DNA of 64,000 bases from Clostridiales bacterium (GTDB taxonomy: Bacteria; Bacillota; Clostridia; Saccharofermentanales; Saccharofermentanaceae): the NCBI GenBank assembly GCA_017513085.1, contig JAFWDK010000015.1:142951-206950 (forward strand). Direction: 5' to 3'. The notes below the pieces were generated by a model that saw only the letters and a list, made by a program, of their open reading frames with translations, made no database searches and was not told the DNA's origin. Made by a program: the position numbers and the translations under genes. Of this stretch, positions 2,504 through 26,197 are shown in pieces (the stretch's first letter is position 1; every line of letters begins with the position of its first letter).

Positions 2504-3387
2504 ATTTTCACAAACTCTTCATAGGTCATAATGATCGCCGGCATCTCGGCAAATCCCTCTTCACAGTATGGTTTCTCCTCCACCACGACGCCGGCCAGGA
2601 TCTTTTCGATCTCCTCCTCACTGATTTCTTTTCCAACAAACATATCAAGCATGAGGTTCCGGTCCTCAAGAAGCATTCCCACCTCGCAGAACCCATTTGT
2701 CTTATATACGGCAAAAGCACTGTGCCCGTTGACTTCAAATGTTTTTACATCGGTACCTCCTCTATAAGGGAACTCCCATTTCTGATCTTCATCCAGAATG
2801 ACCAGTACCGGCGTAATCCCCAAATCCCCTGAAACCGTTTCGTATTTTTGCGGTTCTAGCGGATTCCTTCGGATTCCTTCAGGAAGATAGGAAAACGTTA
2901 GAAAATAGAAGTCTTCTTTCGACATATCGACTTCGATTCTCGTTCTTTGATTTCCTTCTTCGATCCATGCTTCCTTTCTGGGAAAATACCTGAATGATCC
3001 ATCCGGATTCTCCTGCACTTCGATAACGGTCTGCCAAATAATTGTTGTCGATTCTTTCGTCGGTTCGAAACCTGTATTTTCCTCTGTAGAAGATGTTCTT
3101 TCCTTCGCTACGACAACTGTCAGATAACTCTCGCTGTTCGTGTCTTTCTTAAATGAGATCCGATATAGGCTTGAGACGGCAAATATCGTCACGGGCACCA
3201 ACATAACAAGGATACATATAACCGCCGCTGTCAGGAACCATCTCCATCTTGACGTTCCATAGTGCTCCTCGGGTTGCGTCATCTTCGTTATTTCAGCCTT
3301 CTCCAGTATCCGTGTTTTCAAGTTTTCAGATAGGCGGACATCTTTCAATTCTTCATCGATTTTTCTTTTTAGATCATTCATCGTCAA
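2485..3387 (-). CDS. Putative membrane-bound anti-sigma factor (DUF4367-like)
   Basis: Short cytoplasmic N-terminus, single TM (WFLTAAVICILVMLV), YLPEG motif; overlaps the ECF sigma stop. Confidence 0.65.
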   Translation of the reverse strand: MTMNDLKRKIDEELKDVRLSENLKTRILEKAEITKMTQPEEHYGTSRWRWFLTAAVICILVMLVPVTIFAVSSLYRISFKKDTNSESYLTVVVAKERTSSTEENTGFEPTKESTTIIWQTVIEVQENPDGSFRYFPRKEAWIEEGNQRTRIEVDMSKEDFYFLTFSYLPEGIRRNPLEPQKYETVSGDLGITPVLVILDEDQKWEFPYRGGTDVKTFEVNGHSAFAVYKTNGFCEVGMLLEDRNLMLDMFVGKEISEEEIEKILAGVVVEEKPYCEEGFAEMPAIIMTYEEFVKMWGGGA

Positions 3388-20464: not shown

Positions 20465-21427
20465 TCATGTGGTACGGTCGCGGCCAAGATTCTTCGATGT
20501 AAAGAGACGATCATCAGCCATGTGGATCAGTTCTCCTGCATCATTACAATCTGCATAGCAGGCAATTCCCATACTTACCGTGAGACGGATCGGTTCACTG
20601 CTGTCATCCAGAAAAAGAGGATTGCTTGCCAGTGCGGAACGGACGCGCTCTGCTTGCGTCTTTGCGCCCTTAAGCGGGGTATCCGGCAGGATCATCATGA
20701 ATTCATCTCCACCGATGCGGAACACCATGTCGGATTTTCGGCATTGGGAAGTCAGGATGCTTGCAATAACACGAAGCACGTCATCACCCTTGCTGTTTCC
20801 AAAACGGTCGTTGATCTTCTTGAAGAAATCAATATCCAGAGAGATCAGCGAGAAAGTATTTTTCGGATCATCCGGATTTCCGGTCTTCACCCGGCGGTTG
20901 TACTGGTACGAAGTTTTTTCCAGCATCTCGTAAAAGTATCTTCTGTTGAAAAGCCCTGTCAGGTCATCGACCTGGGATAGTCTCTTCAGTTTCTCATTGG
21001 TACGGCTGAGCTCTTCTTCCACTGTTTTCAATGCGGTGATATTTCTCGAAATACCCCAGGTACCGATCACTTTTCCTTTATCGTCAAAGACAGGATATTT
21101 GGATGCGGAGTACCAGATCACGGAGCCATCCGGCTTCTCGAGTTTCTCGATATTGGAAATGAGAGGAGTTTTGCTGTCCATGATCTCCAATTCTTCTTTT
21201 CTGGCACGTGTGGCAAACTCCTTGGGAAAATAATCAAAATCGCTTTTCCCCACCATCTGTTTCGGATCATCTATGCCAAACTGAGAAGCATGAGCCTTAC
21301 TGTTCCAGACGAAACGAGAATCGCTATCCTTAAAATAGATCGTATCATTTGAATAATTACGGATGATTTCGAGGATCATTTCGTTATTGAAAAAAGATTT
21401 GTTGTTATCTTTAGCCATTTTTTCCAC
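20465..21427 (-). CDS. PAS-GGDEF diguanylate cyclase
   Basis: PAS (IYFKD...GKSDFD...WGISR), DLTGLFNRR, DIDFFKKIND, RKSD I-site, GGDEF. Confidence 0.9.
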   Translation of the reverse strand: MEKMAKDNNKSFFNNEMILEIIRNYSNDTIYFKDSDSRFVWNSKAHASQFGIDDPKQMVGKSDFDYFPKEFATRARKEELEIMDSKTPLISNIEKLEKPDGSVIWYSASKYPVFDDKGKVIGTWGISRNITALKTVEEELSRTNEKLKRLSQVDDLTGLFNRRYFYEMLEKTSYQYNRRVKTGNPDDPKNTFSLISLDIDFFKKINDRFGNSKGDDVLRVIASILTSQCRKSDMVFRIGGDEFMMILPDTPLKGAKTQAERVRSALASNPLFLDDSSEPIRLTVSMGIACYADCNDAGELIHMADDRLFTSKNLGRDRTT

Positions 21428-21567: not shown

Positions 21568-23100
21568 ATGAAATTGGAAATCATGGATACCACCCTCAGA
21601 GATGGCGAACAGACCCCGGGAGTATCATTCTCCCCGAGCGAAAAACTCAGCATAGCAAAGATATTGCTTGATGAGGTTAAGGTCGACCGCGTCGAAGTTA
21701 CCTCTGCACGTATATCCGACGGCGATTTTGAAGCGCTTTGCAAGATCACAGAATGGGCAAAAGAGAAGGGTTACCTGGATAGTATTGAAGTATTGGCTTT
21801 TGTTGACCGTGGTCATTCTCTTTCCTGGATCGAGAATGCCGGCGGGCATGTCGTCAATCTTCTCTGCAAGAGCTCTCTGCATCATCTTTCGGCTCAGCTT
21901 GGAAAGACGCCTCAAGAGCATGTAGGCGAGATCCGTCGGGTGATTGAAGATGCTAATTCACGTGGCATGCGCATCAATGTTTATCTGGAAGACTGGTCGA
22001 ATGGGATCCAGAAGGATCCGGAATATGTTAAGATGCTCGTCTCAGAACTGTCAGTCCTTCCTGTCGAGCGCTTCATGCTGGCAGATACTCTCGGAGTTCT
22101 GACACCGGATATGACGTATGAATATGTATCGAAGATGACAGAGCTTTTTCCGGAAGTGCACTTCGACTTCCATGCCCATAACGATTACGACATGTCGGTA
22201 GGAAATACGATCATGGCGGTAAAAGCAGGTGCTAAGGGCGTTCACGTTACAGTTAACGGACTTGGTGAGCGTGCAGGAAATGCCCCGTTGGCCTCAATCG
22301 TCGGTGCAGTGGCGGACTTTTGTGAGGACCGTGAGACCGGTATCGAAGAGGCTGCTTTGAATCATGTAAGTAAGCTGGTCGAGAGTTTTTCGGGAATGAG
22401 GATCCCGAAGAATCAGCCGATCACGGGTGCCAGTGTTTTTACGCAGACCTGTGGTGTACATGCAGATGGTGATACGAAGGATTCTTTATACTGCAATAAG
22501 CTGGCGCCGGAGAGATTCGGACGCATGCGCCGGTATGCACTCGGAAAGTCCAGCGGTCGGGCCAGTATTGCGAAAAACCTTGAGGAATTCGGTTTGGATC
22601 TGGATAAAGAATCCTTGAAAAAAGTTACAGCCAGGATCGTCGAGATGGGTGACAACAAGGAGAGTGTATTGACGGATGAACTGCCGTATATCGTGGCCGA
22701 TGTGCTGGGCAAGGGCAATGGGGAATCCAATGTTAAGATCTTGAATTACTATGTCTGCCATGCCCGGGATCTGAAACCTGTTGCGACGATGAGGATCCAG
22801 ATCGACGATAAAGTCCATGAGGCGAGTGCATCCGGTGATGGTCAGTTTGACGCCTTCATGCGCGCTTTGCAGAAGATCTATCAACAATTCGGAAGAACGC
22901 TTCCTTTCTTCGCCGACTATACGGTAACGATTCCACCGGGAGGCCGCACGAATGCTTTTGTCGAGAGTGTTATCACCTGGCGGGACGGCGATCATGAGTT
23001 TAAGACACGAGGCCTCGACCGAGATCAGGTCGCGGCTGCGATCAAGGCGACTGCCAAGATGCTGAATATCATTTACGAGCAGGAGCAGTTGAACGAGTGA
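21568..23100 (+). CDS. cimA: Citramalate synthase (DRE-TIM LeuA/CimA family, Leptospira/Bacteroidota type)
   Basis: DTTLRDGEQ, VDRVEVTSAR, YLEDWSNG, FHAHNDY, GLGERAGN and C-terminal regulatory domain; YLEDWSNG recalled from Leptospira-type CimA. Confidence 0.8.
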   Translation: MKLEIMDTTLRDGEQTPGVSFSPSEKLSIAKILLDEVKVDRVEVTSARISDGDFEALCKITEWAKEKGYLDSIEVLAFVDRGHSLSWIENAGGHVVNLLCKSSLHHLSAQLGKTPQEHVGEIRRVIEDANSRGMRINVYLEDWSNGIQKDPEYVKMLVSELSVLPVERFMLADTLGVLTPDMTYEYVSKMTELFPEVHFDFHAHNDYDMSVGNTIMAVKAGAKGVHVTVNGLGERAGNAPLASIVGAVADFCEDRETGIEEAALNHVSKLVESFSGMRIPKNQPITGASVFTQTCGVHADGDTKDSLYCNKLAPERFGRMRRYALGKSSGRASIAKNLEEFGLDLDKESLKKVTARIVEMGDNKESVLTDELPYIVADVLGKGNGESNVKILNYYVCHARDLKPVATMRIQIDDKVHEASASGDGQFDAFMRALQKIYQQFGRTLPFFADYTVTIPPGGRTNAFVESVITWRDGDHEFKTRGLDRDQVAAAIKATAKMLNIIYEQEQLNE

Positions 23101-23104
23101 GGAG

Positions 23105-23146
23105 AAAAAAAGTCGAATACCTGATTTCAGGAGATTCGACTTTTTT
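23105..23146. terminator. Bidirectional intrinsic terminator between cimA and the serpin gene
   Basis: A-tract, GTCGAATACCTGA/TCAGGAGATTCGAC stem, T-tract. Confidence 0.8.
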
Positions 23147-23246
23147 ATTTTGTCAGAAGAAAGTCGCAAACGCGAAAACGTCCAATGTCGACTTCCCCTT
23201 TTACCCACCTTCACGAATTCCGCCACGAATTCCGCAAGGAGCAAAT

Positions 23247-24695
23247 TCAAGCAACGGGCTGGTTGACGATACCGATAAACAGCGGTACTCCGGTGGGGCT
23301 GACGATCTCAAAGATAAATGGACGGTCAAAGACGAGTTCGATCCGATCGTCCGGCGGCATAGCGGCACCCGCGAGCATCATTGCGGTAACGGCTGCGGCT
23401 TTACATCCCTCTTCATCGATCGTGACGCGTACGTTCTGAATGGCCTGAGAAATACAGAGATCGTTTTGCCCTGTTCCAAGAGTGGAAAAGTCAGCGCTAG
23501 AAGAATCGAAGATATCCGTGATACCCATCGATTTCAGTTTTCCGTTCAGATCCAGCGAGTTCGATATATCGAACTTCGGAAGAGAAAGCGTGACGAGCAT
23601 GTCCTTTTTTGCGACATTGTTTTTGTTAAGCATAAAACCGAGACATTCTTCGTCAGACAGAAGTGCTTCCGGTGAGATTCCTTCATTGGGAAGGATCAGC
23701 CGCATATAACCGTTTCCATTCGTATCGAGAGAAATGGAGTCGAAGGATTCACCACGGTAGAACATGGTGTGATTTTCGGCTTTCATGAAATCACAGGTCA
23801 GATCCTTGTCCGGTGCGTGGAAAGTGCCGGATTTGGTAGCCTGTTCATTAAACGGTAAGTCCCATTTTGCGGAATAATTCACCGTGGACACCAGAGCCAG
23901 AACGGTCTGCGGATCCAGCTTCAGATCCTGTACAAAATCGGAAAGAAGACCATCGGTCTGTTCGTTGATCCAGGAGCGGTACATTTCATTGTATTTTTCG
24001 GATGCCGGATCACCGGTGAACGCGGAAGCGTAGTAATAGGCGGCCAGGTTTTCCAGAACCTTGGAATCGTACTTGCATTTGTTGTTCGTCCAAAGTGAAT
24101 CGGCGAGGATACAGGTGGCCATCCCATCATTCGCATACGTCACCTCAAAAAGCGACTTGCTGTGGTTTCGGAGGGAATCTATGTCCTTTTCGTGGAGAAC
24201 GTTCAGGATCTGTTGACGGCTCTGTCCACCAGAGATCTCTGCGGTCATTCCCAGAGCCAGATAGAGGCTGAGAGGAGAGAACACAAAGTTTTCCTTACTG
24301 TCCGGTTCCGACATGGCGCTGACGACTTCTTTGAAGTATTCAAAATAGGCTGTCTGGTAGCCGGTCGGCTGTTGTAAAAGCACTTCACGGGTTTCGTGCC
24401 AGAGCTTGTACTGTTTGTCAAATTCAGAGAAGGACAAAGCTTTTTCGTCCGGATACTCGGCCATTTCCGGATAGTTCGGAGCGGCCAGGACCTTCGCGGT
24501 AGCATGGCTTTCTCCGATGAGATTGCTGACGAATTTCGGAGGGAAAAGCGCCAGAAGCAGTACTGCTGCGGCGACGACGACGGCCACAGAAGAGATGAAG
24601 AGGACCTTGTGGCTCTTTTTACGGGGAGACAGATTGGGGATCAGTTTTTCGTCGATCTTTCCGATGGCATCTAATAATTCTTCGTTCTTTTTCAT
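23247..24695 (-). CDS. Membrane-anchored serpin with anti-sigma-like N-terminus
   Basis: NFVFSPLSLYLALGM, WINEQTDGLL, NYSAKW, LPKFDI, DEEGCKAAAVT hinge, FDRPFIF...LFIG; N-terminal ELLDAIGKIDEKLI then one TM. Confidence 0.88.
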   Translation of the reverse strand: MKKNEELLDAIGKIDEKLIPNLSPRKKSHKVLFISSVAVVVAAAVLLLALFPPKFVSNLIGESHATAKVLAAPNYPEMAEYPDEKALSFSEFDKQYKLWHETREVLLQQPTGYQTAYFEYFKEVVSAMSEPDSKENFVFSPLSLYLALGMTAEISGGQSRQQILNVLHEKDIDSLRNHSKSLFEVTYANDGMATCILADSLWTNNKCKYDSKVLENLAAYYYASAFTGDPASEKYNEMYRSWINEQTDGLLSDFVQDLKLDPQTVLALVSTVNYSAKWDLPFNEQATKSGTFHAPDKDLTCDFMKAENHTMFYRGESFDSISLDTNGNGYMRLILPNEGISPEALLSDEECLGFMLNKNNVAKKDMLVTLSLPKFDISNSLDLNGKLKSMGITDIFDSSSADFSTLGTGQNDLCISQAIQNVRVTIDEEGCKAAAVTAMMLAGAAMPPDDRIELVFDRPFIFEIVSPTGVPLFIGIVNQPVA

Positions 24696-24696
24696 G

Positions 24697-25245
24697 TTAT
24701 ACACCTTCTTTTTCCAGTAGATCTTTCAGCTTCTTTCGGATCCGCACAAGCTTCATCTTGATGGCGGCTTCGGAGATCTTGTATCTTTCTGCGATCTCTT
24801 CGATGGAAAGAAAATACCAGTAACGGTAGAGAAAGATGTCTTTGTCTTTTGTGTTCAGGCTTCGAAGAAAACTCTCGATCAGATCCTTCAGGATCACCTG
24901 TTCTTCGATGGCACTGTCTTCTTTTCCGATGCATTCACCCAGTTCATCCAGGCAAAGTGCGGTCTGGCTGCCCTGATATTTCTGTGCATGATCCTTGCGG
25001 TACCGGTTCAACGCAAGGTTTCGGGTGATCGTGCCAAGGAAGACCGAGAGGCGGGAAGGGCGGGCAGGTGGTATGGCATTCCAGGCCCGGAACCATGTGT
25101 CATTGACACACTCTTCCGAGTCTTCGCGGCATTGAAGGATATTCTGCGCGATGGTAGAACAGTATGCACCGTATTTTTCCGAGCATGCCGTTATGGCAGA
25201 ATCGTCCCTTGCAAAGTAAAGATCCAGGATCTTTTCGTCTTCCAT
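24697..25245 (-). CDS. ECF RNA polymerase sigma-70 factor
   Basis: MEDEKILDLYFARD...EDSEECVNDTWFRAW...ITRNLALN...EIAERY...KMKLVRIRKKL; start reassigned to 25245. Confidence 0.92.
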   Translation of the reverse strand: MEDEKILDLYFARDDSAITACSEKYGAYCSTIAQNILQCREDSEECVNDTWFRAWNAIPPARPSRLSVFLGTITRNLALNRYRKDHAQKYQGSQTALCLDELGECIGKEDSAIEEQVILKDLIESFLRSLNTKDKDIFLYRYWYFLSIEEIAERYKISEAAIKMKLVRIRKKLKDLLEKEGV

Positions 25246-25277
25246 TTTCCACCCTCGCTTTCGTTCTCTCACTATTA

Positions 25278-25306
25278 TAGACAAGATAGCGATGTAAAAA
25301 GTAACA
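25278..25306 (-). promoter_or_regulatory. Putative ECF autoregulatory promoter TGTTAC-N17-TGTCTA
   Basis: Same spacing and near-identical boxes as 3909-3937. Confidence 0.55.
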
Positions 25307-25388
25307 CGATTTTCGGAAAAATCAGAAAAACAAGATTGCAAATCTTTTGATCCATACTATAATAATCATGCGCGGAGATTCCGCCGCC

Positions 25389-25426
25389 AAGCAGTTCGGG
25401 TCCGATATCCTGCTTGTAAAACCTAA
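25389..25426 (+). ncRNA. preQ1-I-like riboswitch candidate
   Basis: P1 AAGCAG/CTGCTT, loop starting TTC and ending in C, A-rich tail, ACCT able to pair with loop GGGT (H-type pseudoknot); lies between a TTGCAA-N16-TATAAT promoter and a VUT transporter RBS. Confidence 0.6.
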
Positions 25427-25444
25427 AACCAAAGGAGCAATTAT

Positions 25445-26197
25445 ATGCAAACGATTCGTCGTATTCGAGAGGATTATCGTACTCTCTTACGTAGCGTACC
25501 ATCCATGGTGACGGTAGCTTTCATACTTTCCGTAGTCTTCATGAACCTCATGGCCAGTAAAGAATTATACCGGTCGGAATATTTCTGTCTCAATTGCGGT
25601 CTGGCTTTGTCCTGGATCTCTTTCTTGTGCATGGACTGCATCTGCAAGCGATTCGGTCCGAAAGCCGCCACCAAGATCTCTATTTTGGCTATCGGCGTAA
25701 ACGTGATCTGCGTAGTTATCCTGAAGCTTTTCAGCATGGCTCCGGGAAACTGGGCGGCTTATTACTCGGCTCCGGATGCAGCAACAGGCGCGCTGGTCTC
25801 TTCCGGTGTGGACAGCACTTTCGGCGGTGCATGGTATGTTGTAGTCGGTTCCGCAGTAGCGATGTTTCTCTCCACTCTGGTGAATTCTTCTCTGAATCAC
25901 TTCATCGGCAAAAAGACCGACAATGGTCATTACAGCGGATTTGCCAAGCGGTCTCTGATCTCGACGGGTATCGCCCAGTGGGTCGATAATTTCGTATTTT
26001 CCGCGATGGTATCGCACGTATTCTTCGGTTGGAACTGGACACAGGTCCTGATCTGCTCCACGACATCCATGGCTGTCGAGCTGATTTTGGAAGCTGTTTT
26101 TTCACCTGTCGGATACCGTGTGTCCACGCGTTGGGAGAAAGAAAAGATCGGACAGGAATATATCAACCGTATGGAAAAGCTCGCCGCACAGGCATAA
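25445..26197 (+). CDS. VUT-family (YhhQ-like) queuosine precursor transporter
   Basis: Multi-TM; MNLMASK, DCICKRFG, RSLISTGIAQWVDNFVF motifs; AAGGAG RBS. Confidence 0.8.
   Translation: MQTIRRIREDYRTLLRSVPSMVTVAFILSVVFMNLMASKELYRSEYFCLNCGLALSWISFLCMDCICKRFGPKAATKISILAIGVNVICVVILKLFSMAPGNWAAYYSAPDAATGALVSSGVDSTFGGAWYVVVGSAVAMFLSTLVNSSLNHFIGKKTDNGHYSGFAKRSLISTGIAQWVDNFVFSAMVSHVFFGWNWTQVLICSTTSMAVELILEAVFSPVGYRVSTRWEKEKIGQEYINRMEKLAAQA

Follow-up and report, generated by a model that had tools for sequence, protein, structure and literature searches.

The question raised by this locus is whether a serpin, a kind of protein known as an inhibitor or carrier and not as a signalling module of bacterial transcription switches, can form the outer domain of an anti-sigma factor. 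The window analysed here is a stretch of 64,000 nucleotides (nt) from a rumen Clostridia bacterium, the genome of which comprises 3.06 Mb in 36 contigs with 15,776 open reading frames (ORFs). On the minus strand of the window, a gene encoding an extracytoplasmic function (ECF) sigma factor is followed at once by a gene encoding a membrane-anchored serpin, referred to below as the partner. We propose that the two genes form a self-regulated ECF sigma/anti-sigma cassette in which the outer domain is a membrane-tethered inhibitory-type serpin and the output is more surface serpin; we see the case for this proposal as evenly balanced. The features on which it draws are as follows (aa, amino acids; TM, transmembrane; AF2, AlphaFold2; pLDDT, predicted local distance difference test).

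25278 to 25306, minus strand: ECF-type promoter, with TGTTAC at 25306-25301, a 17-nt spacer and TGTCTA at 25283-25278 (from conservation)
24697 to 25245, stop included, minus strand: ECF sigma factor gene, P0002, 182 aa (from Pfam, TIGR02937 and the 31-row alignment A2)
23247 to 24695, stop included, minus strand: the whole anti-sigma::serpin gene, P0001, 482 aa (from the ORF and Pfam)
24618 to 24695, minus strand: putatively cytoplasmic N-terminal module, residues 1-26, a predicted sigma-binding peptide (from homologue conservation, complex prediction and profile search)
24537 to 24605, minus strand: single TM helix, residues 31-53, with PRKKSHK ahead of it (from hydrophobicity by sequence; AF2 has a helix at 29-50)
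24327 to 24494, minus strand: conserved N-terminal extension of the serpin body, residues 68-123 (from alignment A1; pLDDT 87-92)
23256 to 24326, minus strand: serpin domain, residues 124-480 (from Pfam PF00079)
23352 to 23414, minus strand: hinge and reactive-centre loop, residues 428-448 (from alignment to the conserpin/alpha-1-antitrypsin loop)

The sigma ORF starts at ATG 25245 and stops at TAA 24699-24697; that of the partner starts at ATG 24695 and stops at TGA 23249-23247, and the single base C at 24696 separates the sigma stop from the partner's start. Longer alternative starts are present in the ORF list (TTG 25341 for the sigma factor, GTG 24704 for the serpin); homologue alignments place both N-termini at ATG 25245 and ATG 24695. 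A first-pass annotation of this DNA had likewise put the sigma stop one nt ahead of the partner's ATG and had described the partner as an N-terminal segment of ~30 aa, one TM helix and a complete serpin. The coordinates agree, Pfam and AF2 give the same architecture, and the strings quoted in that annotation are all found in the partner: ELLDAIGKIDEKLI (residues 6-19), EEGCKAAAVT (428-437) and AMMLAGAAM (438-446).

The upstream gene encodes a canonical ECF sigma factor. Pfam identifies Sigma70_r2 (E 1.8e-10) and Sigma70_r4_2 (3.9e-10), region 3 is absent, and the protein scores 68.3 bits against TIGR02937 (sigma70-ECF), for which the cut-off is 42.9. Group 4 (ECF) sigma factors have regions 2 and 4 only and a length of ~180-200 aa, and the 182 aa found here fall within that range.

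We found that the pairing of the two genes is not due to chance, because it recurs in 55 of 57 relatives that bear the partner's N-terminal motif. A protein search returned 701 matches, of which 120 were listed, mostly full length and with 41-94% identity. A scan of data holding one genome per species returned 466 pattern matches, 377 of which encode relatives, and the loci studied here are the best 80 of these 377. All 80 are from Clostridia, mostly of the rumen and gut, and two come from cultured Ruminococcus strains (L010, L011). Their N-termini were assigned to classes by eye:

57 loci, N-terminal motif present: sigma gene directly upstream in 55 and directly downstream in 2
21 loci, other N-termini, mostly lipoprotein signals: sigma gene of the same type upstream in 0
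2 loci (L035, L051), cut at the 5' end: sigma adjacency not judgeable

A survey of gene neighbourhoods for ECF genes paired with TM-serpin genes had been put forward as a check in the first-pass annotation, and its outcome thus favours the pairing. A conserved adjacent partner gene is also a mark of ECF sigma factors, and in 48 of the 55 upstream cases the sigma and serpin genes overlap by 4 nt, the overlap at L060 being 23 nt. At L076 the sigma gene lies 26 nt downstream of the serpin gene, with none in 3,994 nt upstream, and at L047 it lies 9 nt downstream, where the upstream view is 194 nt. Among the 21 loci with other N-termini, L045 (3517-7531) and L057 (947-4688) hold three-gene units in which a signal-anchored serpin gene, a sigma gene and a motif-bearing serpin gene follow one another; L052 has a sigma gene downstream of a serpin gene, on a short contig without an identified third gene. 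No third conserved gene accompanies the pair, the commonest flanking family being found at only seven of the 57 loci. At L064:3312-5272, likewise one of the 21, a different ECF sigma gene (168 aa; Pfam r2 and r4_2) overlaps by 4 nt the gene of a serpin of the same subfamily, the N-terminus of which differs (MNRYRRANEQLHVPDALKRRTLEA...); judged by its sequence, this looks like a second, independent sigma-serpin fusion.

The first 30 residues of the partner read MKKNEELLDAIGKIDEKLIPNLSPRKKSHK and are followed by a hydrophobic stretch. In full-length homologues the segment conforms to [LF]x[DE]x[IL]Gx[IVT]D[EDP]xx[IV], followed by basic residues and then the TM helix, and as basic residues precede the helix, the N-terminus probably lies inside the cell. 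A cleaved signal peptide, which had been named at the outset as the contrary case, is not what is found; the segment is a conserved acidic one of 30 aa, with basic residues before the helix.

AlphaFold-type modelling of the sigma factor (alignment A2) with partner residues 1-36 (alignment A1), also proposed in the first-pass annotation, predicts that the two bind. The interface score (ipSAE) was 0.82, 0.82 and 0.87, compared with 0.02 for the best control; the mark applied to this score, attained in 58 of 80 solved complexes and two of 110 mismatched pairs, is uncalibrated for own alignments such as those used here. Contacts agreed between runs to at least 84%, and the pLDDT of the partner was at least 72. 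The predicted contacts involve partner residues 1-22 and 24-26 and, on the sigma factor, residues 27-31 and 63-83 (region 2), 98-116 (linker) and 119-154 (region 4).

Other proteins of this genome have an N-terminus of this kind as well. Seven further sigma paralogues (E below 1e-28) each have a motif-bearing protein encoded next downstream, with a TM helix and an unrelated outer part (L084-L090, on contigs C17, C24 and C26 of genome G000, four of them within C26:97467-107529). The genes overlap by 4 nt in six of the seven pairs, and in the seventh they do so by way of an in-frame ATG inside the listed ORF. None of the seven outer parts has a significant Pfam match. A profile of the N-terminal 34 residues, made from 119 serpin homologues, was run against the 15,776 ORFs of the genome, and its top five matches are the partner itself (E 1.6e-13) and four of the paralogue partners (1.2e-4, 0.009, 0.027 and 0.18), all at the N-terminus; two more paralogue partners appear at E 1.2 and 8.3, amid unrelated weak matches. 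Each paralogue pair was also seen to have its own two-part promoter variant (TGTAAG, TGTCAG or TGTAAC with CG..[AT]AT).

As synteny is kept, the module is shared with the paralogue partners and binding is predicted, we consider it supported computationally that the N-terminal segment acts as an anti-sigma module, one that appears to lie outside the described anti-sigma families. The first-pass annotation had noted a resemblance to anti-sigma N-termini, with which these three lines agree. In other searches, NCBIfam has no match for the 482-aa partner, Pfam finds Serpin as the sole significant domain and no RsiV outer domain, and a search of the ESM Atlas with residues 1-60 gave scores of 0.82-0.84, which are under the meaningful level.

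We examined 30 regions upstream of sigma genes for the promoter. The pattern GTTAC-N17-[CT]GTCT is found in 13 of these, 57 to 76 nt ahead of the sigma ATG, and in none on the reverse strand or in 200 shuffles; the 13 are the window and 12 loci with a sigma identity of at least 56%, and the spacer sequences vary between loci. At the operon's own promoter the -10 side reads TGTCTATAAT at 25283-25274. The conserved element has the AAC-like -35 and CGT-like -10 expected of an autoregulatory ECF promoter, and 25306-25278, for which a promoter function had been claimed at the outset, is thus well placed to be one. At the 17 loci that are more distant, variants of a two-part motif can be made out by eye, and a looser pattern does not rise above chance (seven of the 30 regions; shuffle mean 2.6, maximum 7).

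Within its own genome the strict pattern has three matches, compared with 5-14 in shuffles. The sole intergenic one precedes the operon itself, the other two lying inside long open frames, and for this reason the regulon is likely to be the operon itself; for the same reason, the sigma factor would raise the amount of inhibitor. At L045, GTTAC-N17-CGTCT stands ~57 nt before the leading serpin gene of the serpin-sigma-serpin operon, which is the non-anti-sigma one, and a second box, CGTCTATAATGG, was noticed just ahead of the sigma gene. By eye, L057 and L076 have elements of the clade type, before the leading serpin gene and the serpin gene of the reversed pair, respectively; the script pattern matched neither.

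The genome has two other serpins, both lipoproteins, and these have a different element upstream, TGCAACAGA-N14-CGTCT[AT], which also precedes the gene of a different ECF sigma factor:

L001, ~2870-2900, minus strand (G000:C11:75601-75574): TGCAACAGA element upstream of a lipoprotein serpin gene
L002, ~2812-2839 (G000:C26:46570-46543): TGCAACAGA element upstream of a lipoprotein serpin gene
L091 (G000:C31:9453-9480): the same element upstream of the different ECF sigma gene

TGCAAC-N16-18-CGTCT has eight matches in the genome, compared with 1-5 in shuffles, and a second ECF sigma factor may drive these secreted serpins. We rejected the idea that the two belong to the regulon of the window's sigma factor, as TGCAACAGA...CGTCT is of the type of the C31 sigma factor's own promoter and not GTTAC...TGTCTA.

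The outer domain is a complete serpin. PF00079 covers residues 124-480 (E 1.3e-67; model positions 10-370 of 370), phmmer against the PDB finds conserpin (4e-37) and tengpin (6e-35), and the top Foldseek matches are all serpins (E 4e-29), with tengpin among the first. An AF2 model of the partner from a 41-row alignment has a mean pLDDT of 80.3 and a predicted template modelling score (pTM) of 0.78; residues 1-64 are of low confidence and the body is confident from residue 68. In the extension that precedes the serpin domain (residues 68-123), Y75, P76 and P82 are invariant in alignment A1 and Y81, W99, Q109, Y113 and F120 nearly so. It contains YPEM..YPDE, and a YPEM/YPQM start is also present in the lipoprotein-anchored serpins of L054, L058, L059 and L063. 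One relative of the same subfamily, P0115 (704 aa), was seen to have a signal peptide and a dockerin (PF00404); as the dockerin stands in place of the anti-sigma module, this would be a cellulosome-borne form.

Inhibitory serpins (MEROPS I4) have a hinge with Glu at P17, Gly at P15, Thr or Ser at P14 and small residues at P12-P9. The hinge of the partner has E428 at P17, G430 at P15, C431 at P14, AAA at P12-P10 and Val at P9, and on this basis it resembles the inhibitory type apart from the Cys at P14; the first-pass annotation had called the hinge inhibitory-type, which these residues support with the exception of P14. By alignment, cleavage would fall between A444 (P1) and A445 (P1'), and loop residues 435-447 have a pLDDT below 50, a low confidence such as an exposed native-state reactive-centre loop would give. 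Of 121 proteins (the query and the 120 listed homologues), 119 fit the hinge pattern, P0072 and P0120 being the exceptions, and Glu at P17, Gly at P15 and Ala at P12 are conserved in the listed relatives. Among the 119 fitting proteins, P2 is Gly in 105, P1 is Ala in 62, Ser in 19, Gly in 15, Met in 12, Thr in five, Lys in three and another residue in three, and P1' is Gly in 53 and Ala in 42; P2-P1-P1' thus stay small while P7-P3 vary. Two other roles for these residues were set aside: the loop is not a signal-peptidase site (A-x-A), as relatives often have Asp, Glu or Tyr at P3, and a disulfide between the P14 Cys and Cys195 or Cys301 seems disfavoured by the strand order of the model, in which they are not neighbours.

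How might such a cassette work? According to the complex model, partner residues 1-26 would sit between sigma regions 2 and 4 and hold the sigma factor at the membrane. Protease activity outside the cell would then destroy the partner by one of two equally possible routes: a protease could cleave, or become trapped on, the reactive loop and so flip the serpin to its relaxed form, or the exposed tether (residues 54-67) could be clipped once the local serpin is spent. A site-2 protease of the M50 family would free the sigma factor, and the genome has a candidate for it (Peptidase_M50, E 4.6e-53, in a 443-aa frame on contig C13). The freed sigma factor would transcribe its own operon and yield more of both proteins, a loop that would replace spent surface inhibitor and shut off once new partner re-binds the sigma factor; since each protease uses up one serpin molecule, the inhibitor would be restored as it is spent. 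Part of the first-pass annotation's interpretation is supported in this scheme, namely the anti-sigma module (by synteny and prediction), a conserved promoter that would raise the inhibitor, and the hinge with the exception of P14; that a protease is the trigger of sigma release is an inference. In a more specific and rather doubtful version, the serpin would sense as a suicide bait and keep count of protease hits: each cleavage or trapping event at the loop would turn one tethered serpin from stressed to relaxed, and this change would be relayed through residues 68-123 and expose a site-1 cut, so that one sigma factor is released per inhibitor. This would amount to a stoichiometric, self-resetting meter of proteolysis, built more than once by gut and rumen Clostridia.

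The main rival is that the sigma and anti-sigma factors are a real pair and the serpin is cargo, an effector merely fused to the anti-sigma factor, with the sigma factor switched by another envelope signal and protease attack irrelevant to signalling. The data are compatible with this and with protease triggering, and we think the cargo explanation possible, if on the unlikely side. It gains from the history of the anchors. In a quick maximum-likelihood tree that covers 85 serpin bodies (those of the 80 loci, the window, the two other serpins of its genome and the second serpins of L045 and L057), there are nine changes between the anti-sigma anchor and other anchors, compared with a shuffle mean of 19.6, and at least seven of these fall on well-supported branches. 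The paired serpins of L045 and of L057 are close kin, and the genome's two lipoprotein serpins are on a very long branch outside the subfamily. As the body moves freely between anchors, surface inhibition would be the serpin's job in both anchor forms, and such swapping fits a serpin that is an effector as well as one that is a sensor. Two further observations favour cargo: the other paralogue partners in the genome lack a recognisable sensor domain, and the promoter type carried by the lipoprotein serpins, that of a different ECF sigma factor, implies that serpins are ECF outputs in this organism. However, with its only intergenic promoter match at its own operon the sigma factor has no other regulon to serve a different signal, there is no third conserved gene that could supply a sensor, and in such anti-sigma factors (RsiV, RsgI) the outer domain is usually the sensor.

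We regard as improbable that the serpin fold is non-inhibitory and senses a ligand, in the manner of hormone-carrying serpins, the signal being a small molecule or some non-protease protein. The Cys at P14, in place of the usual Thr or Ser in 119 of 119 listed relatives, is what speaks for it; against it, the hinge retains Glu at P17, Gly at P15 and small residues at P12-P10, the loop, of the usual length, is exposed in the model, and the small P2, P1 and P1' across the family suggest selection on a cleavage site. Even less credible to us is that the partner is no anti-sigma factor and its N-terminus a mere signal anchor of a surface serpin that is co-transcribed by happenstance. No anti-sigma family model in Pfam or NCBIfam (zf-HC2, RskA, DUF4179, RsgI_N) matches the module at E up to 0.1, as a mere anchor would have it, but the sigma gene lies directly upstream in 55 of 57 motif-bearing relatives and 0 of 21 with other anchors, the motif recurs on the partners of paralogous sigma factors, and binding is predicted with clean controls. 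Several of these points, the P14 Cys and the lack of a matching family among them, weigh against a protease-triggered cassette as well. The seven or more anchor changes suggest that the serpin body works without a sigma factor; a trapped protease would remain tethered, and its coupling to site-1 cleavage lacks a known step; and the complex score may in part reflect resemblance to solved sigma/anti-sigma complexes. Among Logan contigs of metatranscriptomes, short pieces from sets X2, X4 and X5 match parts of the serpin gene, those from X2 the sigma gene as well, and none in these three sets, which carry no strand or end information, spans the junction at 24697.

The operon ends at a terminator that separates it from a convergent gene:

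23104 to 23146, minus strand: intrinsic terminator, a hairpin with a U run 3' of the serpin gene (from RNA fold)

The hairpin (23146-23104) folds at -19.3 kcal/mol (z -6.09), and none of 200 shuffles folds equally well; it faces a leuA-like gene at 21568-23100 (Pfam HMGL-like and LeuA_dimer). A scan for sigma-70 promoter and terminator consensus lists neither the ECF promoter nor this terminator, both of which are outside its patterns, and Rfam has 0 family matches within 22900-25700. Beyond the leuA-like gene, the ORF at 20465-21427 (minus strand) has by eye the look of a PAS-like and GGDEF-type diguanylate cyclase. On the other side of the operon, a leader of ~50 nt (25386-25437, plus strand) lies upstream of a Vut_1 transporter gene (25445-26197) and follows a TTGCAA-16-TATAAT promoter (25336-25363). 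It matches short RNA contigs in four of four runs; the contigs diverge beyond the leader, and because they continue into unlike sequence, the leader appears to be conserved across organisms. It has 0 matches in Rfam even at E 1, and could represent a riboswitch-like element, so far unrecognised, ahead of a transporter of the queuosine-precursor type.

Among described systems, the closest logic is that of SigV-RsiV and SigP-RsiP. In these, the outer domain of a single-pass anti-sigma factor binds an agent, site-1 and site-2 cleavage destroys the anti-sigma factor, and the output counters the agent. The agent is lysozyme or a beta-lactam, and the systems are those of Bacillus subtilis and C. difficile (SigV-RsiV) and of B. 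thuringiensis (SigP-RsiP) (PMC4183432, PMC5014341, PMC8844934); signal peptidase has a role in site-1 cleavage (PMC8844934). The cassette described here resembles them in joining an ECF sigma factor to a single-pass putative anti-sigma factor; it differs in its serpin outer domain, in an inner module of ~26 residues outside the known families, and in that its bait would be a consumed suicide substrate where theirs is a reversible receptor. The outer sensor modules of RsgI are carbohydrate-binding or glycoside hydrolase modules, and Clostridium thermocellum has multiple paralogous SigI-RsgI pairs (the latter from PMC10328401). Both cases thus have several paralogous pairs in a Clostridia genome and an outer module borrowed from an effector family, whereas the sigma factor here is a canonical ECF one (regions 2 and 4) and not SigI, and Pfam finds no RsgI_N.

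The serpin of Bifidobacterium breve is protease-induced in its transcription and autoregulated (PMC8012564). The same outcome is proposed here; in B. breve a two-component system beside the serpin operon does the sensing, whereas here it would be the inhibitor itself together with a sigma factor. Tengpin, one of the best matches to the partner in sequence and fold, shares with it an extension at the N-terminus. Proteases of the elastase-like or subtilisin-like kind are the targets of gut and cellulosomal serpins (PMC8201313 and PMC12484212). Tengpin, the siropins and cellulosomal PinA have the same fold as the partner; unlike it, they are either secreted or carried on dockerins and are not known to be tied to a sigma factor, and the subfamily described here has the P14 Cys and a conserved 56-residue extension. 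In class II anti-sigma factors of the CnrY type, a short cytoplasmic peptide of a single-pass protein lies across sigma regions 2 and 4. The peptide predicted here is alike in manner only; no sequence relation was found, with no search made for one.

No description of the sigma/serpin pair was found in the open-access full-text literature, in line with the first-pass annotation, the author of which knew of no serpin-gated sigma system, and the word 'serpin' is absent from the main text of the ECF reclassification (PMC7826278). Papers sharing the terms proved unrelated where checked. The sigma-membrane serpin circuit is widespread and seemingly undescribed. The family is a large one, with 377 stretches encoding relatives in one-genome-per-species data, and L010 and L011 are at hand in cultured Ruminococcus isolates. 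If the proposal is true, a 26-residue sigma-binding peptide would add a very small module to the anti-sigma classes, which would be useful for orthogonal switches and protease reporters. The cassette would also be a direct and simple means of sensing proteolysis outside the cell, with bait, switch and output in two genes, and would explain how fibre-degrading Clostridia of the rumen and gut protect their surface proteins in a protease-rich habitat.

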